Shown here: positions 1,339-57,123 of the stretch, in pieces
Position numbering within the stretch: the first letter of the stretch is position 1
How the letters are laid out: every line of letters begins with the position of its first letter
IMG/VR virus record: IMGVR_UViG_3300014205_000174
DNA length: 64,000 bases
Strand: one strand, 5' to 3'
From: a virus
Taxonomy: Duplodnaviria; Caudoviricetes
The notes under the pieces: generated by a model
The model's database searches: none
What the model was told of the DNA's origin: nothing
Seen by the model: the letters and a program-made list of their open reading frames with translations, nothing else
Position numbers and translations under genes: made by a program

Positions 1339-1589
1339 TGGAAACAAATATAAACATAACCACCGGTACTGTTAAGCGTGTGCTGCCAACAATATATGGT
1401 AGTCTTACCACCAAAAAAATAATTATCCTTATTGAGGCTGCCAACAAAATAGATGGCCAGGTGTTTTCTGGTGTAATTACCGAGGATGGCACATTATACG
1501 GCAATGGCGAGATGGGAATTATAAAATGGTCTGAATTTCTGGATATGAAGGTGCAAATAGGCGATTTGAGCATTACCCCAAACAGTTAG
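1338..1589 (+). CDS. hypothetical protein
   Basis: 83 aa, translationally coupled. Confidence 0.65.
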   Translation: METNINITTGTVKRVLPTIYGSLTTKKIIILIEAANKIDGQVFSGVITEDGTLYGNGEMGIIKWSEFLDMKVQIGDLSITPNS

Positions 1590-1594
1590 ATTAT

Positions 1595-1912
1595 ATGGTA
1601 AAGAAATCGGAGCTGCTGCAAATCAATATGAATATGTCCGTCTATGTAATAATGGATGATGAGGACTTTCGGCACTGGCATAAGCACGATAATGCAGGTC
1701 AACCCGCAACTTTAAAAATAAAGTACGACCCCAAGGTGTATGAAAATAGAATAAATAAAAAAACTGGACTTGTCTGCATGCAGCTATACGAGTTCATGAG
1801 GATATTTGGGAATTACACAAAAGAACCAACGGACTGGTTGCCATGCAGGGCCACAATGATGTTTGATGCAAAAGATTTCAATAATGTAAAAAAAAGTAAC
1901 TTTAAAAAATGA
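1595..1912 (+). CDS. hypothetical phage protein
   Basis: 105 aa with a MQLYEFMRIFG motif; ATGA overlap with the next gene. Confidence 0.7.
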   Translation: MVKKSELLQINMNMSVYVIMDDEDFRHWHKHDNAGQPATLKIKYDPKVYENRINKKTGLVCMQLYEFMRIFGNYTKEPTDWLPCRATMMFDAKDFNNVKKSNFKK

Positions 1913-2184
1913 GCAAGGGAAAGGAAATAGTAAAAAAACTTAAGCGGAAGACGCCCATTGAAATCGAATACGAGGTGATACAAAAAGAAGATTATTACTC
2001 TTGCTATATACCCAGTATAGATTCTTACTTTTCGGTTTCCGGTAAATCCAAGACGCGGGCTCAGATTACCGCCGCCATTAAAAAGAAGGTAACTGGGCTT
2101 ACTATGCTGTGGATAAAATTCTGGAATGAAGAAAATAAAAAAGGGACGGCACTAAAGCCTACTGATACAAAAAAGAAAAAATAA
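1909..2184 (+). CDS. HicB-like (partial RNase H fold) protein, tentative
   Basis: IEYEVIQKEDYYSCYIPSIDSYFSVSGKS resembles HicB N-terminal domains. Confidence 0.4.
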   Translation: MSKGKEIVKKLKRKTPIEIEYEVIQKEDYYSCYIPSIDSYFSVSGKSKTRAQITAAIKKKVTGLTMLWIKFWNEENKKGTALKPTDTKKKK

Positions 2185-2189
2185 GGCAA

Positions 2190-3434
2190 CGTCACAACTA
2201 TCGGTATAAATTTATAAGTTTGTAAACTATGTTGAAAGCATACAAATACCGCATATACCCTGACTGGAATCAGCGCAGCCTGATTAACCAGACGATGGGT
2301 TGTTGCCGATTAGTGTATAATTTGGCGCTGGAGACTAAGATACGTGCGTACAAGGAGCATGGGGTGAGTTTATCTGGCTTTGACCTTATCAACCAGTTTT
2401 CGGAAATGAAGAAGGACTACGACTGGATGAATATACCGTATAGTCACAGCATACAGTCGTCTATCCGCAACGTAGAGCGTGCATACAAGAACTTTTTTAA
2501 CGGAGCGGGGTATCCAAAATACAAAAAGAAAACCAGCCGACAGAGCTATGCCTGCCCTGACGGGAAAAGGCATATTGACTTCGATAAAAGTCTTCTAACA
2601 ATCCCCAAAATACCCGGCATTGCAATAAAGCTTGATAAGCGTGCTATAATGGGAGATATAAAGACCGTTACGGTTGCTAAAACACCAACCGACAAATACT
2701 ACGTCAGCATCCTGGTCGATACAAAGAAGGCGCTGCCGGAGAAGAAAACCATAGACCCGGACAAAACGGTAGGTATAGACCTTGGCCTTACGCACTTCAT
2801 CATACTGGATAACGGAGATAAGTTCGACAACCCGCGCTTTCTGCGAGAGCATCTTGATAGGTTGAAATACCTGCAAAGGAAAGCGTCAAGAAAACAAAAA
2901 GGCAGTAAGAACCGGAAGAAAGCAAATAAGCTGGTTGCTGCCCAACACGAGAAAATAGGCAACAAGCGTAATGATTATCTGCAAAAACTCAGTACTAAAT
3001 TAGTTGGCGATAACCAAGCTACTACATTCTGTATTGAGAACCTTGCAGTTGCAAACATGGTCAAGAACCATAAACTGGCCCTAAGCATAAGTGATGCAAG
3101 CTGGTCTGAGTTTATCCGCATGCTGAAGTATAAATCAGAGTGGGCGGGTAAGAACGTGATAGAAATAGGCCGGTTTGAGAAAAGCACGAAAACATGTTTC
3201 TGCTGTAAGCAGGTAAACGAGACGGTAGACCTCGCTGACCGGATATGGACATGCCAAGGCTGCAATACTACCCACGATAGGGACATAAATGCGGCAAAGA
3301 ATATAAAGGAAATGGGGCTGAGTGAAGCAGGGCGGGGTACGTCCAAAAAGTCTGTGGAGCCACGAAGATTACCTCGGGCGCGGAAGCAGGAAGTCAGTAA
3401 TTACAAAGGCATCTACCTTAAAGTATGACATTAC
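2190..3434 (+). mobile_element. tnpB-only IS200/IS605-like element, ends approximate
   Basis: tnpB plus a 3' GAAGCAGGAA-GTCA...TGAC stem ending in ATTAC (3430-3434), typical of an omegaRNA/right end; left end not resolved. Confidence 0.55.
2229..3428 (+). CDS. tnpB: TnpB RNA-guided endonuclease, IS200/IS605 family, no tnpA
   Basis: KAYKYRIYP N-terminal HTH, RuvC GIDLG / IENL / HDRDINAA, CxxC...CxxC zinc ribbon. Confidence 0.95.
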   Translation: MLKAYKYRIYPDWNQRSLINQTMGCCRLVYNLALETKIRAYKEHGVSLSGFDLINQFSEMKKDYDWMNIPYSHSIQSSIRNVERAYKNFFNGAGYPKYKKKTSRQSYACPDGKRHIDFDKSLLTIPKIPGIAIKLDKRAIMGDIKTVTVAKTPTDKYYVSILVDTKKALPEKKTIDPDKTVGIDLGLTHFIILDNGDKFDNPRFLREHLDRLKYLQRKASRKQKGSKNRKKANKLVAAQHEKIGNKRNDYLQKLSTKLVGDNQATTFCIENLAVANMVKNHKLALSISDASWSEFIRMLKYKSEWAGKNVIEIGRFEKSTKTCFCCKQVNETVDLADRIWTCQGCNTTHDRDINAAKNIKEMGLSEAGRGTSKKSVEPRRLPRARKQEVSNYKGIYLKV

Positions 3435-3435
3435 C

Positions 3436-3608
3436 ATATATGACTGGTGCAGGGCGCAGATGGCCCTGATTGAGGCGGAGCAGGCTGATATAGCCACAGT
3501 TTTTCTTCCTTATGTTATTATCAAGGAAAAAAAACGCTGTACGAGACTTTTATCATCAGTGTTTCAGGCAATAGCGAACCTTTTTTATTAAGTTCACCAA
3601 ATCCATAA
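3436..3608 (+). pseudogene. orphan 3' fragment of a phage gene (DWxxAQMALIE...VFLPY...TLYE family), with a frameshift in an A-run
   Basis: Reads IYDWCRAQMALIEAEQADIATVFLPYVIIKEK then, after a shift in the poly-A, TLYETF...; no matching 5' half upstream of tnpB. Confidence 0.5.
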
Positions 3609-3614
3609 AGCAAT

Positions 3615-4244
3615 ATGCGACCAAAAAACAACCAGGCGGCCATAATCAATCGATTAGGCAAAAAACTAAAAGCAGCTTCAGCGGCACCAGCTAAAAAACA
3701 GGCTAAGTCAAAGCTTAGTGGTTCTTCCGGTAAGAAAACTGCTTATAAGAAGGCAGTTATCCCGGCTCCGGCCCCAACCACACGCTCTTCCGGCAATAAT
3801 TATCCGTCAGTATCTGGGCCATTTACAACGAAGCCGGCAACTGATTCAGTAACAGCGAGGCGTAAGGCCCTTGCATCAAAAAAAGTAGTAAAAACTGCAA
3901 GGAAATCTTTTTTTGATGAGCTTGACCATATATTTCCTATACGGGTAACACCGGATACGGTAGCGGCGAAAAAGGGGAAGAAGGTCGGTAAGGCTTCCGC
4001 TTCGGGAAAGCCAGGTGCCGAGTGGATAAATGAAAAGCCTAAGACCAAGGCCGCCCCCGGTAAGAAGCAAAATCATAAGCAATCTACTGAGGAGTTGGCC
4101 AGGTCGCTAATGCCATTATTTGCAGTGGCTGGGTATCATTTGGTAAAAATGATGTGCGGAATTTCCGAAAGTAAAGCCAAGGCCCCTGTAGCCAGAAAGG
4201 CTGCGCCGAAGAAAGCGGCAGTGAAGAAAGCCGCGAATAAGTAA
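3615..4244 (+). CDS. Lys/Ala/Pro-rich, histone H1-like basic protein
   Basis: 209 aa, very basic, KAAPKKAAVKKAA tail. Confidence 0.65.
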   Translation: MRPKNNQAAIINRLGKKLKAASAAPAKKQAKSKLSGSSGKKTAYKKAVIPAPAPTTRSSGNNYPSVSGPFTTKPATDSVTARRKALASKKVVKTARKSFFDELDHIFPIRVTPDTVAAKKGKKVGKASASGKPGAEWINEKPKTKAAPGKKQNHKQSTEELARSLMPLFAVAGYHLVKMMCGISESKAKAPVARKAAPKKAAVKKAANK

Positions 4245-4401
4245 TATTGATTTAGTTGTTTTTTTAAACACACACACAACATGGGAATACTTCCGGAACA
4301 TGACTGGGCCATATTTGGCAAATTCGTTTTTGTTGTTTTATTGCTTGTAGTCCTAGAGGGTGTGATTGTAAATATTAAGAAAAAACGAAAGAAAGAAGTC
4401 G

Positions 4402-5208
4402 ATGAGTAATATCCTTGTACGCAAGTTTATAGCAACTAACCTACACAGCAATGATACTCATACCTGTGATGATGAGGTAGCCGCATGTGAATATATCCGC
4501 AGTCGGCCTGTAGGGGAAAAGTATATGATATTGCCTTGTTATGAGGTTGTGTCCGATGCGGATATATCCTACCGTGTAACTATTGTGCTGCCGGTATGGG
4601 CTCATCCGCAAAAAACTATCAGGGCCATTGAAAGTGTCCTTAATCAGGATACCAATGGATGGGAGCTGTTGATAATTGGGGATTGCTGCCCGAATCTCCA
4701 GCGCCTCATAGACACTCGCTACTTCGATGCCATTATTTCCGCGCAGCAGCTTAAGGGCAATAGCGTAGTGGTAATTAATTTGCCGGAGCATTCGGGCGGC
4801 TTTGGATATAAGCAGCGGAACAAAGCAAGGGAAATAGCCAAGGGTAAGTATACCATGTACCTTGATAACGATGATTTCCTGCTTCCTGAGCATGTTTCTG
4901 CGCGCATGCGGGCTGTAGAAGGAGAAAATGAGGGTTCTTTAGACCTTGTTGCGTTTGAGACGTGGAAGAACTGGCTTGGCTTTTACCGGGATACGATTTT
5001 TGAATCCGGGAAAATAGGGCATGCGGAGATATTGATAAAAACATCTTTGTTGCGGGAGCTGCCGGAGAGCGACGGGGTGTACGGCCACGACTGGACATTG
5101 GTAGAGCAGTGCATTGCCCGGAACGTCAATAAGGCAATTATACCAGGCAGGCCCTACTCATATATAATAATGAGCGATAAGGAGCACCCGGAGGAGGGTA
5201 TTGATTAA
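4402..5208 (+). CDS. glycosyltransferase family 2 (GT-A)
   Basis: VTIVLPVW, AIESVLNQ, WELLIIGD, RNKA..AKGKY, YLDNDD (DxD). Confidence 0.9.
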   Translation: MSNILVRKFIATNLHSNDTHTCDDEVAACEYIRSRPVGEKYMILPCYEVVSDADISYRVTIVLPVWAHPQKTIRAIESVLNQDTNGWELLIIGDCCPNLQRLIDTRYFDAIISAQQLKGNSVVVINLPEHSGGFGYKQRNKAREIAKGKYTMYLDNDDFLLPEHVSARMRAVEGENEGSLDLVAFETWKNWLGFYRDTIFESGKIGHAEILIKTSLLRELPESDGVYGHDWTLVEQCIARNVNKAIIPGRPYSYIIMSDKEHPEEGID

Positions 5209-5226
5209 GCAGTAAAAAAAGCAAAA

Positions 5227-6093
5227 ATGCGTATAAGAAATTTATTTAAGTGGCGCAAGCCGTACATCCTGGATAAGTCTGGGCTTGATGAAATCAAGCA
5301 GGGCGTAGTAGAAGAGATGAGGAAGCAAATTGCCGCCTTGCAAAGACCGGAGCCGCTAACAACAAATTACGCATTATTCAATCCGACCACGCCGGATGGC
5401 GCTGGCCTGGATAAAGCCGTATACCTGTACGATTTTCTGGGAGAGTGGGGAAGTAATGCCTTAAATGTTGTGGGTGGTACGGGAATTGTTATTGGCGGTA
5501 CGGCAATTGATGTTCCTGCTGATGAAAATTCACCGGTAGGCCCAATATCGATAGGCGGACAGGTTATCGGCGAAGCAAAACGGATAAAACCAATAGATGT
5601 GCTCAATGAACTGGAAACCTTTGCCGGGCCGGATATGCTTGATGGCATTGATGCCAAGATTGCTGTCATGAAAGCCAAAATAGACCTCATTCGCAATAAT
5701 AGCTATGCGGAAAAGGAAGTGATAGATATGGTCACCCGCTTGGAGAACAGGAAGAAATGGGAGGAATTTAAAGAGTTCTATTCGCAATTCAACAACACTA
5801 CCTCAGACAAGGTGCAGACGCTGGTGAATAAATATGAACTGGTTCTTAAGGGTTCTGATTTATTCATAGGCAATATGCCCGATGAGGCAATCAATATCAT
5901 GAAGGAGTATGTCGACCAGACCGTTAACCTTTGTGGTAAGAGGCCTGTGTTTTATGTGATTGCCGAACAGCAGGAGTTCAAAGACCAGTACAAGAAGAAA
6001 GACCCAATACTTCTGGTTCAGTCGCCATTTGGAGCGTACTGGCAGATATTGGGTGCCTGGGACAAAGAAATGATATTGCTTGAAGAACTTTAA
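5227..6093 (+). CDS. conserved hypothetical phage protein
   Basis: 288 aa, C-terminal DPILLVQ...WQILGAWD motif. Confidence 0.8.
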   Translation: MRIRNLFKWRKPYILDKSGLDEIKQGVVEEMRKQIAALQRPEPLTTNYALFNPTTPDGAGLDKAVYLYDFLGEWGSNALNVVGGTGIVIGGTAIDVPADENSPVGPISIGGQVIGEAKRIKPIDVLNELETFAGPDMLDGIDAKIAVMKAKIDLIRNNSYAEKEVIDMVTRLENRKKWEEFKEFYSQFNNTTSDKVQTLVNKYELVLKGSDLFIGNMPDEAINIMKEYVDQTVNLCGKRPVFYVIAEQQEFKDQYKKKDPILLVQSPFGAYWQILGAWDKEMILLEEL

Positions 6094-6102
6094 TAATAAC
6101 CA

Positions 6103-6549
6103 ATGCAACAAACTGAAGAAAACATAATAACCTGGCCGGATATTTCACAGTGCCCATACGACATGATAGCGGGTAAAATTACGGAAATGTGCAAAGAGCT
6201 AAGAGGCCGTGATTTGTCAGTTAGAGAAGATGCGCTTAGTGCCGCCAAGGTAATCTGGCCGACATTGCAGTCTGCATTACGCAGTAAAGGTAAAGTCGTA
6301 GGGTTAAACGATTTTGCCGAACCGGTAATGCCAGAGTGGGCTACGGAACCGATAGTTTGCTTGGGAACAATCCCAGTAAAGGTTAAAAACAAGACCCACG
6401 CCATGAATGTTGCAAAAAGTACAGGTCACGGCGGCTGGGCTACAATAGGCGAGTTGTGGCTGTGGGTGGCAGACGGCGGCCCTATCATTGAGAAAACCAT
6501 GAGGCATTACGGCTATTTAAAAGGGGGCGAAGATGGAAAAATCAGATAA
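6103..6549 (+). CDS. hypothetical protein
   Basis: 148 aa ORF in array. Confidence 0.7.
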   Translation: MQQTEENIITWPDISQCPYDMIAGKITEMCKELRGRDLSVREDALSAAKVIWPTLQSALRSKGKVVGLNDFAEPVMPEWATEPIVCLGTIPVKVKNKTHAMNVAKSTGHGGWATIGELWLWVADGGPIIEKTMRHYGYLKGGEDGKIR

Positions 6550-8781: not shown

Positions 8782-9033
8782 ATGACGACAATTACAATAC
8801 CCATAGGGTGCGAAGGGGGTGCGTCAGAACAACAGTTCCGGACATTCTGCGAACACTTTTCCTGTACGTTAGAAAAAAGAAAACTCGGTGCGGTAGAGTG
8901 GGTTATCCATGCCGAAGATGCAAATGATATCTTCTGGCTTGGAGCAAACATGAACTTCCGTCATAAGGATGGCGTCTCTATTAGTGTGGCTAGCAAACTT
9001 TTGAATAATGAGCAAGGGCGGTGTTATAGTTGA
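8782..9033 (+). CDS. hypothetical protein
   Basis: 83 aa ORF. Confidence 0.6.
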   Translation: MTTITIPIGCEGGASEQQFRTFCEHFSCTLEKRKLGAVEWVIHAEDANDIFWLGANMNFRHKDGVSISVASKLLNNEQGRCYS

Positions 9034-9232
9034 AGTTGTTTCCGGAAAAAGGGCTGGTAAGTTTGGTCAGGTTCCAATTGCAAAACAGCAGTTGAAGTTT
9101 GCAAAATTACTTAAGGTGTGGGTGGAGTACTTTGAAGACTGCAATTGTCAGGTGCCGGTACTTGAGAACGGACGCAAGGTTGATGGTCTTACTTCCGCAA
9201 TAAATATTAGACGCATTGGATTCTACGATTAA
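9008..9232 (+). CDS. hypothetical protein (KOW/SH3-like)
   Basis: GVIVEVVSGKRAGKFG resembles a KOW motif. Confidence 0.55.
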   Translation: MSKGGVIVEVVSGKRAGKFGQVPIAKQQLKFAKLLKVWVEYFEDCNCQVPVLENGRKVDGLTSAINIRRIGFYD

Positions 9233-47845: not shown

Positions 47846-50800
47846 ATGACCACAACTATACGTACATATACCATAGCGGATTATCATAGCAACAACAGCG
47901 GACAACATTATGGTTGTTTTGATGTTGAATTGTCGTGGGATAAGAACGAGAAGTGGTGTGTGCGTGCCGGTGGGGACTTGGATAAGTATGCTCCTCTTTA
48001 TAAAAATACCCATAATAGGTCTATCAAAGACGCTCTGGCGATATATAAGCGCCAGGTGGCAAAGGCAAAAAAAGATTCGGGTAAAGAAGGTGAAGAGTGG
48101 ATGACGTCTCGCTATGATGAGTATGTCGAAGCTGATGCAAAAGATAATGCATCGTTAGCTGAAGGTGGTCAGGTAGGGCCTGCACCAGAGATGACCGAAG
48201 ACCAGCGCATAGCATCTATTATTATTCAGCAATTGGGTGGTCGCAACAGGCTGAATATAATGACAGGTGCATATAATTTCTATGCAGTAAAAAAAGGCGT
48301 TGCTTTCAGGATTAAAAACCAGAAGGCCAACTATATAAAAATAGTATTGGAGCCCACCGACCTATATGCCATTGAGATTGGCCGCATCAGGGGCAATACA
48401 TACAAGATAGTGTATGAACATAGCGGTATTTACAATGACCAGTTAAAAGGCATCATTGAGAAGTATACCGGTATGTACCTTTCTTTGAAGGATGGGGGCA
48501 GGATAGATGTAAATGACGATGACCATAATCAGGACTTGGAGCATTTGAAAAAAGAGGCTATTGCCAATGCAAAAAGGTACGGTCGCAATAAGGCATTTGC
48601 ATATCTTGTTCTTGTAGAAAAAGAATACGATGGGGTAAAGCCAACCCGTGTGGATATACAGTTAAAATCCGGGTTTGAATTAATGCCGCAATCTTATCGT
48701 GATGCTTTTGATATAATTTACGATACATCGGCTGAAAATGAAGAAAAAAAATCGGCACCAGCGGCACCATCTTCGTCAGAATCATTTAAGCCAACGGTTG
48801 GCCAGGTATTCCACAGTAATTCAAGTGGCAAGGATTTTGAAATTACCGACATTGATGAAGATGGCTGGATAACTACTTACCAGGTAGGGAAACCACACCA
48901 GATTCAGTACATGGATAAATCAAATACACCATCCTTCCTTATGTACATGAGAAGGGGCGCGTTTGAGTTGATTAATAAAGATGCAACCCCTATCAGCGAC
49001 AGTGACTACATTTGCCGCATAGGCAGTGAGATAGTAATTAAAAAGTTAGAATACGACAGGAATGTGAAAATGAAGCTTATGCAAATAATTCCTTTGAAAG
49101 AGGGGGGCATTGAGGCTGGCATGGGTAAATACACGTATAAATTTGTTGGTAGTAAGGACAGGGTGAAATACATTACTGAATCTGCATTGAGAGGGATGAT
49201 ATATGCTAATCAAATTGTTTTTATTAAACAATTAGAAGATGGCGGCCCTGTTGATATGACGGAGCGGGAGTTCCTTGATAAATATTTTGGGGTTAACGTT
49301 TTCCCCAAGGAGATTACCGACATGTTTGAAATTGAAAATAAATCCTCATCAAATAAAGATAAAGTAGCAGCGTACATTGATGACCTAAAGCAAAGGGGTT
49401 TTACGGTAAAAAAGAAATCGTACAGTGATTTTGTTTCTATCATGGGCGCAAAAAAGAAGATGGCTGCCGGCGGCCCTGTGTCTTCCATGGACGATGAGAT
49501 TTTAGATTACATCTTCCGTAATTACCCTGACAAGGAGTTTAATGACAAGGAATTCATTTCCATGATTCACGCTATATTCTCAACTAAAATAGAGAACAGC
49601 ACTATTTCTGATAAAGACATTCAGGCTGCAATGAACAGGTCTCTGGTTAGTAAGGCTAAGCAATATAAAACTGAGTTCGGGAAAACCGTGCTCGGGTTTG
49701 AGTCTATTAGCGCCAAGGGCTTTGAACAATACCAAGGCTGTCCGATTATTTATTTCTCTGAGCTGGTAGATATTTCAGATAGCTTTATGACCTGCTCAGG
49801 TATCTTATTTGAAGGCGAAATCGTAAATGGCAGCGAATGCTTTGATGATTGGTTTGCAAATGAAGAGGACGCATTAGATGTAGCCTATAAGATGGCCAAT
49901 GATGTACCGGTGTACGAGGGAGGCAATGAGCCGTATGCTGATGGCGGAGAATTGGAAAGGAAAGCTGCCGCTGTAAGAAAAGCAGTAGAAATTGCAGGAA
50001 TTGCTAATAGCAACAATATCCGCGCATCTAATCTGACATTGAAGCAGTATTCAGAAAAAATATTTGATGCGACTAAGATTGCATACCCCGTATCTGACCT
50101 TGCGCTTGCTTACGAGGCTATGAAGAGTACTGGCTATGCGGACGGCGGCCAGGTAACTGGTGCGGCTAAGGTTTTAGTGCAGGGGTATCCGTATTTCCTT
50201 AAAAAAATAGACAGCACGCATCTGTACGTGACCAACACGGAAAATGCTCCGGGTATGGCCTCTCATGTTGGCCAGTTCAAAGATGCAAAGGGTGACCAGG
50301 CTTTCTACAATGATATCAAGGATTGGCTTCAAGGTAAAATTGATATAGAGGGCCGGGAGTATGCGGATTTCTATGCTGATGGCGGCCAGGTTGATGGTGC
50401 CATTAAGGTTAGTATAGAAGGATATCCCTACTACCTTAAGAAAATAGACGTTACGCACCTGTTTGTATCTAATAACGAGCGCATGGAAGGCACTTGTTAT
50501 CATATAGGTCAGTTCAGGACGCAAAATGGTGACCAGACTTTCTATAATGATATCAAGGACTGGCTTAAAGGTAAAATCGATATAGCAGGAAGGGTATATG
50601 AGAAATTTTATGCTGATGGCGGTGAATTAGAAAGAAAGGCCGCCGCTATAAAAACTGCAATAGAAATAGCTGAAATTGCCAACAAAAATAATATCCGTGC
50701 ATCGCACCTTACATTGAAACAGTATTCGGAGAAAATATTTGATGCGACTAAGATTGCATACCCCATAGCAGACCTTGCGCTTGCTTATGAGGCTATGAAG

Positions 50801-53800
50801 AGTACGGGGTATAAGAATGGCGGAGAGCTTCCTGCCGGGGAATTTAAGAAAGCAGAAAAGGAGACGTTTGAAATATATGACGAAGAAAGTAAATTCGTAA
50901 GGGGCGAGAGTTTTTGGTTCGCATATAAAGAGCTTAATGACGGGAAAGATATTCTTTGTGTTAGTTACGGTAAGAATCTACCGGATGATTCACTTCCTCC
51001 ATATAGCTGTTCGGTTGATATTTGCCCACTACAGAATATCCTTAGTTACCAGAATGACGAAATTAAGACATTAGCTGACGCAGTTCGCCAGTTCTGGATA
51101 GAAATGATACCAACCGACAGGTTTACTATTTCTTATTTTAAAACACTGCAAGAAGCAAAGGAGTTTGCTGAAGACAAGATAAATATTAGCGAGGCGGTGG
51201 TATTAAGTAAGGAAGTAAAATGGATGAAGCCCGACAGCCTCGATTATATACTGTTTATACTCAATAATGGCTGGCTTATCAAAGGGGATTGCCAGGGTGG
51301 CGATAGTTTGTTGTTTAAGGTATACGAGCCGACTACCGGGCTTGACCAGCACGAGTCTGTTTCTGAGTTTATAATAGACGAAAAGAATACAATGATGGGC
51401 CTGGTTATCTCAAGAAAGAGTATGACAAGGCTTGAATCTATTCCGGAAGCCTATAAGTGCATATACTCTGCTCTTCCTGAATTGAAAGAAGTGGGCAATC
51501 AAACGCCATTTGGATTATTTGTTGAGCTGAAAGATATGTCGCCAGCTATGTTTGATGAGGCGGTAATTAATCAATACATGCTTGGCACAAAAGAGTCGTT
51601 AGACGCGAACTTCTGGTCTGATTTGGCTCATTTGTGGAAGACTAATAATCTTCGTTTTGAAAATAATAAATGGGTAAATACCGGCTTGTGGAGGACGGGT
51701 GCTTTTAAGGAAAGTAACACTAATCCTAAGACCGGTCATGAGTTAACCGATGTTGATGTAACTGTGATATGTAGTTTAGCAAATAGCTATAACGTCACAG
51801 TGGCTGATATCAAAACAAATAATCCTGATTTCACCACCTTTGAAATATATAACCAGAGAGGGAATAATTTCAAGGCGGGCGGGCAGATACCGGGACACTT
51901 TGCTTCCGGTAAAAATATGGAGGTGTTTGGGTATCAGACGCAAAATTTCGATATCAGCAAGGCGCTTTGTAATCTGTTTACAGATATAATAAACAACAGC
52001 TCTCATACTGAGCAGTGGTGTATTAAGCATGCTGCCATTGAATTTGATGATGTGCTGAGTATGGAGAAATATGTGGTTCGTACCGGTGAGGCTATACCTG
52101 GGGGCTTTAAGGAGGCTACAAAAGCTGCGCTTCTCGGCTGTAAATTATTACAAAAAGGAGGGTATGATGAAGTAGCTTCCACGACCATCATGTCCGACCA
52201 TCTGCTTGAAATTGCCCGTCGCCTTCCTAAACAATACCGTGACGGTGGGGTGGTAAAACAACATATTCTACAGATAGGCAATGATGCCGTTGCCCTTGAT
52301 GCCCTGATACATGGCGATAGCCAATTGGAAGACTGGGTACAGTCAAGGATAGCCCGCGCTGCTACAGATATGGGTGATGTGGTTAACTACCTCAACTATG
52401 AGCTTGACGGTGACGGCATCGGTGGTGATGGGAAAGAACCACATGTGGTCAAGTATATCGACCTTGATGGCTCCGATGACCAGGAGCCGAAAGAAATTAT
52501 CGTTGAGGCCGTAACGCCGCATGAGGCAAGGGAGATTGTGCAGGAAGAGCTTGGCGATGACGGTATTGTTACGGGGGCGGTTCTTATCGATGATGATTAC
52601 AAGGCCCCGGAAGCCGATATCCCGGCGGTAGCGGTATCGGAGCCTGCGCCACAGGAAATGATGGCCCGTGGTGGCCTGATTGAAAAGGAAACCGACTATG
52701 CACCGTATGTCATAGCAGAAGGCGTTGCCTTTACGCTGATGGATAAGCATTTTCCAGAAAGCAGAGACCAGCAGGCTGCGGAGTATGCGGAAGAAATGGC
52801 TGATTACCTGTATAAAACGGCCCAGAAGCAGTACAAAGATTCTAATGCAACGTTAAAGCATAGTATAGGCAAGGGGTCAAACATAGGCCGTGACCGTTTT
52901 TACGGTATAATGGAGGGCTGGGGTGAGCTGTATATGCTCAAGCACCCATTCACTCCCGTTAAGGCATCTGCATCCATGGCCCGTGGCGGAATGATTGAGA
53001 AGGAGACCGGATATTTCCCGGACGCATTGGCGTCATTAGTTGCCGATGAAATTGTTGACGATAAATTCCCGGATAGCGACCCAGGGGATGCGACTGCTTA
53101 TGCCGATGAAATGGCCGAACATCTTGTGACCACTGCGGAACTAATGTATAAAAACTCTAATTCTTCATTACGCAAGGCTATAGGTAGCGGTTCTGAAGAA
53201 GGCAGGGATAAGTTTGCCGCACTCATGAAGGTGTGGGCGGAGCTTTGGATGGTTGACCACCCGTTCGAGGAAACGGCGCTGGCGTATGCAAAGGGTGGCG
53301 AAGTACGCAATCTTAAGTTTGGCCGCGTGATGCATGAGTTTAAAGAAGGGAAACTAACTGACCGCTGGGGCAACAAGGTTACTGACCGTGGACAGGCCCT
53401 GGCTATTGCATATAGCTCTTCGTCTCCCAAGATGAAAGATGGCGGTGAAGTTAATGGTTGGGTCAAACAAAAGGAATGGCACGGCAATCCTTCATTAGGG
53501 TATGAAAGCTGGAAGAAGAATTTCAAAACGCCAGGCGGAAGAGCAGTGCCTGTTTATCTGTTTGGCAAAGAGGGTAAAGGCAAGAATACTATAATATATA
53601 CTCAAGATGAGCAAGGTAAAACAATTCCTAGCGGGAATACGTTTGATGCGCCCGACTGGAGTTATTGCGTATCTGCTGGGCCTAATAGCGACTATACTCA
53701 TTCCGGTGGGTTTTATCCTGAGACGCCTTCATTGCAGGAGGCTATGGATAAAATAGATGCGCTGGATAAAATAAAAAGGTTAATATACGAAAGCGGCGGC

Positions 53801-54661
53801 ACAATCGAGTTGGTGGAAAACACTTACGCTGACGGCACAAGGTCATACAAGCTTGGTGACAAATACAGCGAAGACTTCGATTATGATGGGCTTATGGCCA
53901 CTGGTTTATCCGCAGATGCAACATGGAGTATTGAAGATTTAAAACTCCTGCAAAATAGTTTTACCGATGTAAATTATCATAAGGAGGCAGCATTGGTTGG
54001 TTCGGTTATAAAGGCATTGGGAAGAGGAGGGAAGCCTGCGGCAAAAGCACATATTAAATATCTTCACGAAAAGCTGATAGATAATATTACTGACGGCGCT
54101 GACGACCAATTACAGGATGGTGATGAGGTTTACGAAGTGTCATTGGAAGCTGTCCCAAATCACGACTTTGGCCCGGAAGCTCACGAGAGTTCTGTGCGTA
54201 TTGCTAAGCATATGGTACCTGCAAAGAGCATAGATGACGCTGTGCGCATAGTTCATGCGTTTTGCGTGGACAATGACCTGGGCGGCGGCAATTTTATCAA
54301 TGCTAAGCTATATGTTGCTGGTGTTGAAATCGGACATATTTCATACAATGGGCGCGTGTGTGGCCTGAATGGTAAGCCTATGGTTTATGAAAAAGGTGGC
54401 GTATTGTCAGTAAGCAGTCTTCGTAGTAAAACAAAGGAGGAGCTTGCCCAGATGTACCAGGATAAGTTTGGACTTCCGGCTCTTCACCAAGATATAGGGA
54501 CGCTGATTGCGGCATTGCACTTTGAAAAGCGCATAAAGAACCTGACTGACGCGGAGCGTGAATTTGCTGCCGATATTGAAGAAAAAATTCAGGATGCGGA
54601 GGATGCTATTGTGAAAGAGAATGGCGGGACAGTTGGCAAAACAGACAGCATCGCTACATAA
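47846..54661 (+). CDS. giant modular GG-motif polyprotein (2271 aa)
   Basis: About 17 [FYML]xxGG motifs separating mostly 50-150 aa modules; duplicated modules bounded exactly by the motif. Confidence 0.85.
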   Translation: MTTTIRTYTIADYHSNNSGQHYGCFDVELSWDKNEKWCVRAGGDLDKYAPLYKNTHNRSIKDALAIYKRQVAKAKKDSGKEGEEWMTSRYDEYVEADAKDNASLAEGGQVGPAPEMTEDQRIASIIIQQLGGRNRLNIMTGAYNFYAVKKGVAFRIKNQKANYIKIVLEPTDLYAIEIGRIRGNTYKIVYEHSGIYNDQLKGIIEKYTGMYLSLKDGGRIDVNDDDHNQDLEHLKKEAIANAKRYGRNKAFAYLVLVEKEYDGVKPTRVDIQLKSGFELMPQSYRDAFDIIYDTSAENEEKKSAPAAPSSSESFKPTVGQVFHSNSSGKDFEITDIDEDGWITTYQVGKPHQIQYMDKSNTPSFLMYMRRGAFELINKDATPISDSDYICRIGSEIVIKKLEYDRNVKMKLMQIIPLKEGGIEAGMGKYTYKFVGSKDRVKYITESALRGMIYANQIVFIKQLEDGGPVDMTEREFLDKYFGVNVFPKEITDMFEIENKSSSNKDKVAAYIDDLKQRGFTVKKKSYSDFVSIMGAKKKMAAGGPVSSMDDEILDYIFRNYPDKEFNDKEFISMIHAIFSTKIENSTISDKDIQAAMNRSLVSKAKQYKTEFGKTVLGFESISAKGFEQYQGCPIIYFSELVDISDSFMTCSGILFEGEIVNGSECFDDWFANEEDALDVAYKMANDVPVYEGGNEPYADGGELERKAAAVRKAVEIAGIANSNNIRASNLTLKQYSEKIFDATKIAYPVSDLALAYEAMKSTGYADGGQVTGAAKVLVQGYPYFLKKIDSTHLYVTNTENAPGMASHVGQFKDAKGDQAFYNDIKDWLQGKIDIEGREYADFYADGGQVDGAIKVSIEGYPYYLKKIDVTHLFVSNNERMEGTCYHIGQFRTQNGDQTFYNDIKDWLKGKIDIAGRVYEKFYADGGELERKAAAIKTAIEIAEIANKNNIRASHLTLKQYSEKIFDATKIAYPIADLALAYEAMKSTGYKNGGELPAGEFKKAEKETFEIYDEESKFVRGESFWFAYKELNDGKDILCVSYGKNLPDDSLPPYSCSVDICPLQNILSYQNDEIKTLADAVRQFWIEMIPTDRFTISYFKTLQEAKEFAEDKINISEAVVLSKEVKWMKPDSLDYILFILNNGWLIKGDCQGGDSLLFKVYEPTTGLDQHESVSEFIIDEKNTMMGLVISRKSMTRLESIPEAYKCIYSALPELKEVGNQTPFGLFVELKDMSPAMFDEAVINQYMLGTKESLDANFWSDLAHLWKTNNLRFENNKWVNTGLWRTGAFKESNTNPKTGHELTDVDVTVICSLANSYNVTVADIKTNNPDFTTFEIYNQRGNNFKAGGQIPGHFASGKNMEVFGYQTQNFDISKALCNLFTDIINNSSHTEQWCIKHAAIEFDDVLSMEKYVVRTGEAIPGGFKEATKAALLGCKLLQKGGYDEVASTTIMSDHLLEIARRLPKQYRDGGVVKQHILQIGNDAVALDALIHGDSQLEDWVQSRIARAATDMGDVVNYLNYELDGDGIGGDGKEPHVVKYIDLDGSDDQEPKEIIVEAVTPHEAREIVQEELGDDGIVTGAVLIDDDYKAPEADIPAVAVSEPAPQEMMARGGLIEKETDYAPYVIAEGVAFTLMDKHFPESRDQQAAEYAEEMADYLYKTAQKQYKDSNATLKHSIGKGSNIGRDRFYGIMEGWGELYMLKHPFTPVKASASMARGGMIEKETGYFPDALASLVADEIVDDKFPDSDPGDATAYADEMAEHLVTTAELMYKNSNSSLRKAIGSGSEEGRDKFAALMKVWAELWMVDHPFEETALAYAKGGEVRNLKFGRVMHEFKEGKLTDRWGNKVTDRGQALAIAYSSSSPKMKDGGEVNGWVKQKEWHGNPSLGYESWKKNFKTPGGRAVPVYLFGKEGKGKNTIIYTQDEQGKTIPSGNTFDAPDWSYCVSAGPNSDYTHSGGFYPETPSLQEAMDKIDALDKIKRLIYESGGTIELVENTYADGTRSYKLGDKYSEDFDYDGLMATGLSADATWSIEDLKLLQNSFTDVNYHKEAALVGSVIKALGRGGKPAAKAHIKYLHEKLIDNITDGADDQLQDGDEVYEVSLEAVPNHDFGPEAHESSVRIAKHMVPAKSIDDAVRIVHAFCVDNDLGGGNFINAKLYVAGVEIGHISYNGRVCGLNGKPMVYEKGGVLSVSSLRSKTKEELAQMYQDKFGLPALHQDIGTLIAALHFEKRIKNLTDAEREFAADIEEKIQDAEDAIVKENGGTVGKTDSIAT
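49934..50809 (+). repeat. A-B-B'-A' module duplication (67, 79, 79, 67 aa)
   Basis: Units start at YADGG codons 49934, 50135, 50372 and 50609; next motif YKNGG at 50810. Confidence 0.9.
52661..53284 (+). repeat. tandem module duplication (105 and 103 aa)
   Basis: MARGGLIEKETDY (52661) and MARGGMIEKETGY (52976), ending at YAKGG 53285. Confidence 0.85.
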
Positions 54662-56096
54662 AACCTAACTAAATGTATTTATCTTTACTCAAACAATTGT
54701 ATTTTTAATTCAAATAGATAAGATTCACAGAATGCCACTTTATAAGTCCAGAAAAATACGATTAGAGCCGAACAACAAGCAGCTTACGCTACTCCGTAAG
54801 CATGCAGGTTGTGCGCGGTATGCGTATAACTGGGCCATTGCAATAAGCGAGCGGATATACGAAGAATATAAAATAACCATCACAGCCATAGACCTAAACA
54901 AAATGTTTGTGAAGATGGAGAAGTCGCAGCATAACTGGCTGTATGAAGTCAGCAAGTGCGCTACACAGCAGGCCATACGCAACTACGAGACAGCGAGAAA
55001 GAACTTCCACAGGATACAGAAAGACAGTGGGTACACTAAGAAGCGTCTGCTAAATAAACGCTCCGAAGACGGAAAGAAAGTATACATCCTTGAGGGTCTG
55101 CCGCAGAAAAAGAAAAAAAACAAGAGCCGCGATAGTTTTTACCTTGAGAATGATGGCGTAAAACCAATACAAACAAAAAAGGGGTATATTAAACTGCCAA
55201 AGATAGGTTGGGTGAGAACGTCCGAGGATATTTCACCGGAAGTGTCATTCCTTAGCTGCACCATAAGTAGGCGTGCTGATGACTGGTACGTAAGCTACAA
55301 GTACGAGTTTGAGCCTACGGAGCACAGAAACATAAGAACTGTTGGCGTAGACCTTGGCATAAAGACACTAGCTACACTGAGCACCGGTATAACCTTTGAT
55401 ACCCCCAAAAGGTACAAAGAGCTTAATCGCAGACTGCGCCGCGAGCAGAAAAGCCTGTCTCGTAAGTATGAATCTTGGAAGCTGCACAAAAACGACCAGC
55501 GTCCACAGAGCCAAAATTACAAGAAGCAAAAAACCAAAATAGCAAAGTTGCATAAACGCATTGTAGACCATCGCTTAGATGGCCTGCATAAGCTCACTAC
55601 CCACCTCACCAAAAACCACAGTGAGATAGTTATTGAGGATTTGAATATAAAGGGCATGTTGAGCAACCACAATCTGGCCAGAAGTATTGCCAATGGGAGT
55701 TTCCGTGAGCTGCGCCGCCAGTTGAAATACAAAGGCGACTGGTATGGCTGTAGAATTACCGTAGCTAACAGGTTCTTCCCGAGCAGTAAGATGTGCAGTG
55801 TCTGCGAAGCAATCAACAAGACCCTTAAGTTAAAAGACCGGGAGTGGGACTGCGAGGGTTGCGGCACCCATCACGACCGTGATAATAATGCATGCCAGAC
55901 ACTGGAGCAGTACCCAACTATGCATGCATATAAATATTTGCCGGTTAGCCAAACCGGATATGCGGAGAGTTCCACCGTGAAAGCCTGTGGAGCCGGGAGT
56001 TCTGCGAGAGTTTCGCATAGCCTGGCTATTAGTACGAAGCAGGAAGTAAACACTAAAAACCCGCGTGAGTAGGTTTAGGTAAGTTTTACAGAACGG
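54662..56096 (+). mobile_element. tnpB-only IS607-like element
   Basis: Right end GTAGGTTTAGGTAAGTTTTACAGAACGG ends in the GG typical of IS607 ends; left end approximate. Confidence 0.6.
54732..56072 (+). CDS. tnpB: TnpB RNA-guided endonuclease, IS607-type, no tnpA
   Basis: KIRLEPNNKQ...HAGCARYAYNWA; RuvC GVDLG / VIEDL / HDRD; zinc ribbon. Confidence 0.95.
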   Translation: MPLYKSRKIRLEPNNKQLTLLRKHAGCARYAYNWAIAISERIYEEYKITITAIDLNKMFVKMEKSQHNWLYEVSKCATQQAIRNYETARKNFHRIQKDSGYTKKRLLNKRSEDGKKVYILEGLPQKKKKNKSRDSFYLENDGVKPIQTKKGYIKLPKIGWVRTSEDISPEVSFLSCTISRRADDWYVSYKYEFEPTEHRNIRTVGVDLGIKTLATLSTGITFDTPKRYKELNRRLRREQKSLSRKYESWKLHKNDQRPQSQNYKKQKTKIAKLHKRIVDHRLDGLHKLTTHLTKNHSEIVIEDLNIKGMLSNHNLARSIANGSFRELRRQLKYKGDWYGCRITVANRFFPSSKMCSVCEAINKTLKLKDREWDCEGCGTHHDRDNNACQTLEQYPTMHAYKYLPVSQTGYAESSTVKACGAGSSARVSHSLAISTKQEVNTKNPRE

Positions 56097-56157
56097 CAAG
56101 AAAGCAATACTTGTTGCTTCAGGCTTATTGTTCGGGGCCATAGGCCTTGTGCTATTA
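56095..56157 (+). repeat. diverged copy of 56323-56385 (downstream gene) in the TnpB guide position
   Basis: Encodes GKKAILVASGLLFGAIGLVLL versus GKKAILVVSGLLFGAIGLVLL. Confidence 0.9.
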
Positions 56158-56234
56158 CTGATGTGGAGCGTGAATTAGCGGAGCATGTTGAAGGTGAGAT
56201 TCAGAAATCTGAAGATGCGTGTATAGGCAGTTGA
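56154..56234 (+). pseudogene. diverged copy of the 3' end of the upstream polyprotein gene (54542-54613)
   Basis: ITDVERELAEHVEGEIQKSEDACIGS* versus LTDAEREFAADIEEKIQDAEDAIV. Confidence 0.75.
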
Positions 56235-56271
56235 TAAAAAATATTAGTTACGCAAAACTGAAAAATAATTT

Positions 56272-56460
56272 ATGCAACCAGAACTAATCGAAAAGATAAA
56301 AGACATAGACCTTAGTAAGGTAGGCAAAAAAGCAATACTTGTCGTTTCTGGGCTGCTCTTTGGCGCGATAGGCCTTGTGCTGCTGAATAAATTCGTAGAG
56401 GATAACTTTGATTTCCGAGTGGACAGAATTTCCAACAAGCCACCAAACGATAAGAAATAA
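56272..56460 (+). CDS. small single-TM protein
   Basis: AILVVSGLLFGAIGLVLL. Confidence 0.75.
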   Translation: MQPELIEKIKDIDLSKVGKKAILVVSGLLFGAIGLVLLNKFVEDNFDFRVDRISNKPPNDKK

Positions 56461-56502: not shown

Positions 56503-57123
56503 ATGTACAAGTACGAACTAAAATTACAAGAAGTGGGCATGCAGGTTACAGACCTTAGTAAGGGCATGCAGGATAAGATAAAGAAATTCCTTAAGGGGGT
56601 TGCCGCCGCTGATAAGATGAGGGAAAGGCTGAAAGGAAATATTACCCAGGCGACCAGGGAAAGTATTGAAGCGGAGTTGGCTGATATGGACATTGATGCT
56701 GGCGATATGAAGCTGGTAAAGGGCATTGAAGACGGTATAAAAAATAAAGACAAGTACGATGCCCTTGCTGCTAATTTGCAGAAGAAAAGGCTAGAGAAAG
56801 GGATGTCTGGCTCAAAGCCGCCGGCAGCGACACCAATACCTATTCCGCCAGCAACAAATCCAGCACCACAACCAATACCTATTCCGCCAGCAACGAGTCC
56901 AGCACCACAACCAACGCCAGCCTCGGTTGCTCCGGCTCCCGTTGCTCAAGTACCAACCACGCCACCCGCCTCAACTCCTTCTCCTGCTCCGGCAGATAAA
57001 GGCAAGGAAGAAGAGGTAGCTAAAGATGGGAGTAGTAATGTCAGTGGCTGGGCCTTTGCAGGAATAGTGGTATTGTCGCTACTTGGGCTTGGGGCCTGGG
57101 CAAAAAAAACGGGCAGGATATAG
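56503..57123 (+). CDS. C-terminally anchored Pro-rich membrane protein
   Basis: Same architecture as 47399; GWAFAGIVVLSLLGLGAWAKK. Confidence 0.8.
   Translation: MYKYELKLQEVGMQVTDLSKGMQDKIKKFLKGVAAADKMRERLKGNITQATRESIEAELADMDIDAGDMKLVKGIEDGIKNKDKYDALAANLQKKRLEKGMSGSKPPAATPIPIPPATNPAPQPIPIPPATSPAPQPTPASVAPAPVAQVPTTPPASTPSPAPADKGKEEEVAKDGSSNVSGWAFAGIVVLSLLGLGAWAKKTGRI

Follow-up and report, generated by a model that had tools for sequence, protein, structure and literature searches.

A transposase-less tnpB in a phage genome whose predicted guide is a diverged copy of the neighbouring gene

Why should a phage nuclease gene carry, at the position from which its RNA guide would be read, an imperfect copy of the intact gene next to it? 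The question is raised by a locus in a stretch of 64,000 nucleotides (nt) of IMG/VR virus record IMGVR_UViG_3300014205_000174 (Duplodnaviria; Caudoviricetes), hereafter called the window, which is part of a contig of about 211 kb from an uncultured phage. Here, an IS607-type tnpB lies between two intact genes, U and X, and the 20 nt predicted to serve as its guide agree with X at 18 positions. The explanation we favour, with a probability of roughly 0.55, is drawn from sequence comparison: a solo IS607-derived cassette of tnpB and guide RNA, whose guide was fixed in the X gene of a diverged lineage, would have been moved here by recombination and would cut foreign X alleles while sparing the resident one. 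The features on which the argument depends are the following.

47846–54661, + strand: gene U, 2271 amino acids (aa), from the list of open reading frames (ORFs); intact, no Pfam family
54545–54661, + strand: tail A, the final 39 codons of U; working copy of the duplicated end (repeat D1)
54662–54731, + strand: spacer of 70 nt from the U stop to the tnpB start
54732–56072, + strand: tnpB, 446 aa, full length according to Pfam, the alignment with ISDra2 TnpB and 11 homologues
55955–56096, + strand: omegaRNA scaffold, which starts within the 3' part of tnpB and runs to the right end, ...GAACGG
56097–56116, + strand: predicted guide CAAGAAAGCAATACTTGTTG, directly 3' of the scaffold, 18/20 identical to X
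56095–~56159, + strand: X' fragment, codons 18–38 of an X allele from a diverged lineage; non-coding here, 80% identical to 56323–56381
56157–56234, + strand: U' tail, the last 25 codons of U with a stop codon of its own, in a different frame from X'
56235–56271, + strand: spacer before X, which together with U' and X mirrors the ancestral order of U stop, spacer and X
56272–56460, + strand: gene X, 62 aa, a small membrane protein; intact
56321–56344, + strand: near-cognate target inside X, TAGG followed by CAAAAAAGCAATACTTGTCG

The prediction of the guide depends on where the element ends. We aligned the right end with those of L001 (69% protein identity), L002 and L003, the closest fetchable loci, and of L006–L009 from IMG/VR. 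In every locus aligned, strong nucleotide conservation extends through ...AAGTTTTnnnGAACGG, a motif with a single occurrence in the window, and stops abruptly at the base equal to 56096; because similarity is lost immediately after this motif, the right end at 56096 is real. The scaffold, about 140 nt up to 56096, has a consensus fold of 28 pairs, 17 of which show compensatory changes among eight sequences, and because it has no Rfam family match at E ≤ 1 it is not of the RAGATH-18 type. As the conservation of the scaffold ends at 56096 and the guide of TnpB systems lies immediately 3' of the scaffold (PMC8612924, PMC10690162), the guide is predicted to run from 56097.

Compared with X at 56325–56344, the guide at 56097–56116 is identical at 18 of 20 positions and differs at positions 4 and 19, a match of which 0.01 per window are expected by chance in shuffled sequence. 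The site in X is preceded by GGTAGG. The junction between the right end and X' falls exactly after the GG of the cognate sequence, as by chance would happen at about one site in twenty, and a GG before the cognate site is what is predicted for a serine-recombinase insertion junction (PMC10690162, PMC13565253). Because the junction lies exactly there, the guide would be nothing other than the DNA that normally flanks an inserted IS607 element, in this case within X of a related phage. The first-pass annotation had placed the guide at 56097 as a recoded, that is synonymously diverged, copy of the neighbouring gene, and had described a self allele with a seed mismatch next to a motif ending in GG; the mapped right end and the match to X support the former, and the mismatch at position 4 and the adjoining GTAGG the latter.

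The sequence beyond the guide shows that this match is part of a longer one. The stretch 56095–56153 is 80% identical to 56323–56381 (local BLAST E = 9e-9), and the homology covers 21 codons (56095–56157) with a single amino-acid difference (Ala/Val). Differences are mostly synonymous, as had been noted earlier, with 13 synonymous against two non-synonymous changes (Nei-Gojobori; proportion of differences at synonymous sites, pS, 0.70; at non-synonymous sites, pN, 0.045; binomial p = 7e-6). Such a synonymous excess is impossible in a dead fragment, which argues that X' is a piece of a working X gene from a lineage about 20% diverged and was turned into a relic recently; the divergence of this 60-nt piece from the resident X thus took place under purifying selection.

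Directly behind X' follows the displaced end of U. Of the order and limits given in the first-pass annotation, an X copy and then a U copy, the order stands, while the limits shift slightly: U' starts at 56157 instead of 56154 and X' reaches to about 56159, so that the two overlap by 1–3 nt at most. The segment 56157–56218 is 73% identical to 54545–54606 (local BLAST E = 2e-4), U' translates as TDVERELAEH...IGS*, and its divergence from U (pS 0.53, pN 0.33) is compatible, together with the pS of 0.70 for X', with a single pair of donor and recipient. The U homologues P0123–P0126 have a C-terminal domain in common up to ...KRIKNLTD-E-R/K. The only relatives found, L004 (a 174-kb contig) and L005, are distant (about 51% identity in the C-terminal domain of U). 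Both have a U homologue, a spacer of 25–27 nt, a 68-aa homologue of X (52–55% identical over the full length) and the same next genes, and both lack tnpB; the nuclease gene thus stands between two conserved genes and is absent from these distant relatives. This adjacency of U and X argues that U'-spacer-X is the ancestral contiguous order, and the inserted block would then consist of tail A, the spacer, tnpB, the right end and X'.

That both resident genes are whole, as first reported, is substantiated by the 2271-aa ORF of U and by the end-to-end alignment of X with its homologues. About 200 nt of non-coding DNA separate tnpB from X; the base composition of tnpB resembles that of its flanks, and a scan for sigma-70 promoters and terminators was uninformative. 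Two repeats were seen around X. An exact 14-nt repeat, AGACCTTAGTAAGG (peptide DLSK), occurs at 56307–56320, just upstream of the target site in X, and again at 56550–56563, so that one copy lies towards the 5' end of X and the other towards that of the following gene. Downstream of X, a 206-aa gene contains two tandem 39-nt units that are 82% identical (56821–56898) and encode a Pro-rich PxPIPIPPAT repeat.

The nuclease gene is intact. TnpB has the Pfam domains HTH_OrfB_IS605, OrfB_IS605 and Cas12f1-like_TNB and aligns with ISDra2 TnpB over its whole length (E = 4e-54), with the catalytic D/E/D residues and the CxxC...CxxC zinc finger in place; D207, E302, D384 and the zinc finger are invariant in an alignment of 11 homologues. 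The RuvC residues are thus intact, as had been stated. No tnpA exists anywhere in the 64 kb, which agrees with the absence claimed before, and the assignment to IS607 is supported by a MerR-resolvase tnpA directly upstream in the relatives L003 and L052 and by a right end that terminates in GG. Because tnpA is missing here and present in these two relatives, the locus is a derivative and not an intact IS607 element. The description of this TnpB as "domesticated" had to be dropped, as no evidence stands behind the label.

A shared left-end motif likewise speaks for the IS607 affiliation: GGCTGWCARCAGTTAAAA and its variants are common to L003, L052, L002, L007, L009 and L049. The motif was not found in the window. 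Upstream of the tnpB ATG, no conserved sequence is seen in comparison with L001 and L002, no IS607 left end lies in the 70-nt spacer, and the similarity of this spacer to the 5' part of X is non-significant (p = 0.73). The left-end flanks of seven relatives all conform to xRGG (AAAGG in three of them, otherwise GAGGG, AAGGG, TAGGG and TTGGG), whereas the right end reads ACGG.

Several further observations concern tnpB elements in general. A second TnpB paralogue in the window (2229–3428, + strand; 399 aa) is 32% identical to the one studied here, and no duplicated flank was seen for it within 1500–5300. L006, L007 and L009 belong to one IMG/VR contig of 184,534 bp, on which a 1.39-kb element without tnpA occurs three times with about 90% identity between the copies; left and right ends are present in all three, each after AAAGG, and these loci also contain long arrays of repeats in a register of about 70 nt (L006 6285–7860). 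In four loci (L049:4341, L052:4302, L054:4832, L056:2880), the right end lies 12–25 nt ahead of the next start codon. The GG-rich insertion motif resembles a ribosome-binding site, and insertions may favour the gap between this site and the start codon.

How could such a locus have formed, and what would it do? According to the favoured explanation, a related phage lineage would have received a complete IS607 element in its X gene, directly after GG (...GTAGG|CAAG...), which would have fixed the guide. The block of tnpB, right end and X' would later have entered the present backbone at the same junction of U and X by one homologous crossover in U and one microhomology junction between codon 38 of X and the point where the resident U tail begins. 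In this way, U would keep a working end (tail A), and the untouched U'-spacer-X would keep X whole; tail A and X' would be of donor origin, U' and X of recipient origin. Other histories were also weighed, namely a tandem duplication with later insertion, integration of a circle in the Campbell manner and template switching in repair, and since the data do not separate them we commit ourselves only to "one homologous crossover plus one microhomology junction".

Once in place, the complex of TnpB and RNA would cut X alleles that read TAGG followed by CAAGAAAGCAATACTT..., namely those of donor-lineage phages without the insertion, given that DNA of the form xRGG plus guide is the substrate expected from established TnpB biology. 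Both the resident X, with its mismatches at positions 4 and 19, and the junction of scaffold and guide, which reads ACGG, would be spared. For the resident X this prediction is made because a mismatch exists at position 4 and because cleavage by the IS607 TnpB ISFba1 is lost or greatly reduced when a single mismatch falls at positions 1–13 (PMC11061315). During mixed infection, the cut would lie about 190–230 nt away from the cassette, like the cuts of free-standing phage homing endonucleases; it would either be repaired from the cassette genome, with tnpB and flanking markers carried across, or the rival genome would be lost. Homing or anti-competitor action on foreign X alleles, as put forward in the first-pass annotation, is a plausible role to propose for the cassette.

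Comparable arrangements were found in other loci. In L051 (2673–4500), whose TnpB is 59% identical to the one in the window, tnpB begins 7 nt past the stop of an intact 106-aa gene, again with neither tnpA nor a left end. The last 165 nt of this gene are copied from the last G of the right end (4312) onwards with 73% identity, and copy and gene differ mainly at synonymous sites (pS 0.86, pN 0.12, p = 2e-10). The guide has four mismatches to the working copy (positions 2, 5, 11 and 17), which in addition has a GGA Gly codon where a GG would be needed; the GG is thus broken by a Gly codon change. Whereas the displaced gene end of L051 abuts the right end, with the replacement end upstream, the displaced U end of the window is separated from the right end by the X piece, which supplies the guide. 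In L023 and L015, which belong to a different TnpB clade, the right end is followed at once by a copy (75% and 68% identity, respectively) of the C-terminal two-thirds of a 108-aa gene, which is intact 1.07 kb downstream (L023:5239–5410 versus 6307–6478; L015 likewise). All of these loci and the window have in common that tnpB lacks a transposase, that the guide position is taken by part of a nearby gene in a synonymously diverged version, and that this nearby gene is itself whole.

The clade of L023 and L015 includes many related IMG/VR contigs from sample 3300045988. Two diverged members of the family of the 108-aa gene flank tnpB in L034 (2958–3147 versus 5361–5550), and a generic scan returned more matches of flanks behind tnpB (L048:5229–5414 versus 8858–9043; L010, L021, L024, L041, L044), some of which are probably extra right-end copies or paralogous genes.

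A number of findings weigh against the proposed homing function. A copy of a neighbouring gene at the guide position is present in two of the approximately 14 loci of the TnpB clade (the window and L051), and because only these two show it, the layout could be an occasional recombination scar; the guides of L001, L002, L003 and L007–L009 have no near match within their own flanks. The TAGG before the target fits only the xRGG part, that is, the last three positions of the inferred motif, and there are IS607 TnpBs that tolerate no change at any of the five motif bases (PMC11061315). As 228 nt lie between cassette and target, tnpB would be transferred only if co-conversion extended far. Finally, the assumed donor, a tnpB abutting a headless X, was not seen. 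Close phage relatives were found neither in INPHARED (searched with DNA and the U protein) nor in IMG/VR (TnpB, U end, X alignment, guide pattern), and neither a close relative nor an X allele was found among JGI metagenome contigs (X alignment, degenerate codon pattern) or GTDB genomes; an X allele matching the guide was thus found in none of the four collections, which yielded no close relative in which to look for one. When the X protein was used as a query, it returned nothing but itself; since the 68-aa homologues already known were not recovered, such a search lacks sensitivity for a protein of this length. Equivalent searches for the L051 gene were empty.

There is a serious rival, which we hold to be unlikely: the locus would be an inert recombination scar, left when a phage whose X had been interrupted by IS607 regained the gene through recombination with a second phage, and TnpB a passenger with no remaining target or role, the 18/20 match to X being a by-product of homology. 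The failure to find a guide-matching allele in any collection searched fits this account, as do the intergenic sites, without neighbour-gene copies, at which most relatives of the clade are located, and the fact that solo tnpB genes are very common in phages (homologues in 311 GenBank phage records). Against it, ORF, catalytic residues and RNA structure are all intact; the layout recurs independently in L051 and in L023/L015; and the resident target has a seed mismatch, which is neither a perfect nor a random match.

The other rival of substance, likewise improbable in our view, assumes a stacked history of guides. The cassette would first have inserted in the 3' end of U, with U' at the right end as its guide and tail A as the replacement end of U, as in L051, and an X fragment would later have been inserted between right end and U'. 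L051 shows exactly such a first stage for another gene, with the displaced gene end directly at the right end; a recurrent type of cassette would explain the duplication of the U tail, and the guide could have been swapped if a sister element located in X had recombined with this one within tnpB. The site itself speaks against this sequence of events. The position in U that matches the start of U' is preceded by AACCTG, and two bases before it stands the central base of a Leu codon that every U homologue conserves, which makes a GG motif impossible there, whereas seven of seven left-end flanks read xRGG. Moreover, two events would be needed, each importing a piece of a diverged gene, where one suffices, and U'-spacer-X has the ancestral order. 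The first-pass annotation's proposal that the nuclease was retargeted by placing a new fragment ahead of the old one is weak for the same reasons, the ancestral order and the missing GG at the U site.

Two further explanations are easier to set aside. A chimeric assembly of two co-occurring strains would suit a metagenome contig with two diverged versions of the same short segments 0.2–1.6 kb apart, but it is very improbable: the junction of X' and U' shares at most 1–3 nt, far below any assembler k-mer, the junction of right end and X' is located at a cognate GG, and L051 and L023, which were recovered from different samples, have structures of the same kind. An RNA-guided repressor of X in the manner of TldR, which the near match of the guide inside the neighbouring gene might suggest, is scarcely credible with an intact RuvC triad and a site 50 nt into the coding region instead of at a promoter.

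The favoured explanation, a cassette moved with its guide from a foreign X, can be compared with three known systems. The first is IS607-family TnpB as described for the Clostridium botulinum IStron (PMC10690162) and ISFba1 (PMC11061315), with which the window shares the domain set and the intact RuvC domain, a scaffold that begins within the 3' part of the gene and stops at ...CGG with flanking DNA as the guide, a target-side motif with a final GG from which the ...ACGG of the scaffold itself is distinguished at -3, and close homologues that have a serine-recombinase tnpA. In the C. botulinum element, the transposon-adjacent motif is TGGG, the scaffold ends in UCGG and discrimination occurs at -3 (PMC10690162), and the xRGG flanks and ACGG right end observed here mirror this arrangement. 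Unlike these elements, the window has no tnpA, left end, group I intron or RAGATH-18 RNA, and an intact gene only 228 nt away contains a near-cognate target together with its motif, which ordinary insertions never leave.

The second comparison is with the free-standing homing endonucleases of T4-like phages (SegF, SegG, MobE), known for "intronless homing" (PMC13565253). There too, a nuclease gene that is absent from relatives stands between conserved genes, the target lies in a conserved neighbour, few substitutions separate self from non-self, as is predicted for the window, and co-conversion of flanking markers is expected. In contrast, recognition at the present locus would use a 20-nt RNA guide instead of a protein, and the element itself carries the discriminating sequence, apparently the relic of a foreign allele. 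Thirdly, synthetic cleave-and-rescue or toxin-antidote CRISPR drives (PMC7046741, PMC7951863) also direct an RNA-guided nuclease against a needed gene and link it to an escape copy altered at silent sites; the window case differs in being natural and viral, with the resident allele as the "rescue" and a drive that is only putative. A search of the literature returned no published description of such a layout.

TnpB restores its own transposon after excision and drives insertion sequences through plasmid populations. The experimental case of TnpB-driven spread concerns plasmids (PMC11870625), and a review from 2026 (PMC13565253) lists transfer to co-infecting phages as no more than a theoretical possibility. 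Tentatively, and with less confidence than in the favoured explanation itself, transposase-less phage TnpB cassettes in general might be regarded as natural RNA-guided drives that cut the rival allele and keep a silently re-spelled copy; the locus might then also record a change of target, in which a cassette of the U end now polices X by means of a captured piece of a foreign X.

If the favoured explanation is true, the locus would be a natural RNA-guided counterpart of both the intronless homing of T4-type phages and the engineered cleave-and-rescue drives. With three short targets and one nuclease, it offers a directly testable system. It would also suggest a route by which nucleases with fixed guides may gain new targets, which bears on the origin of programmable CRISPR effectors from TnpB.

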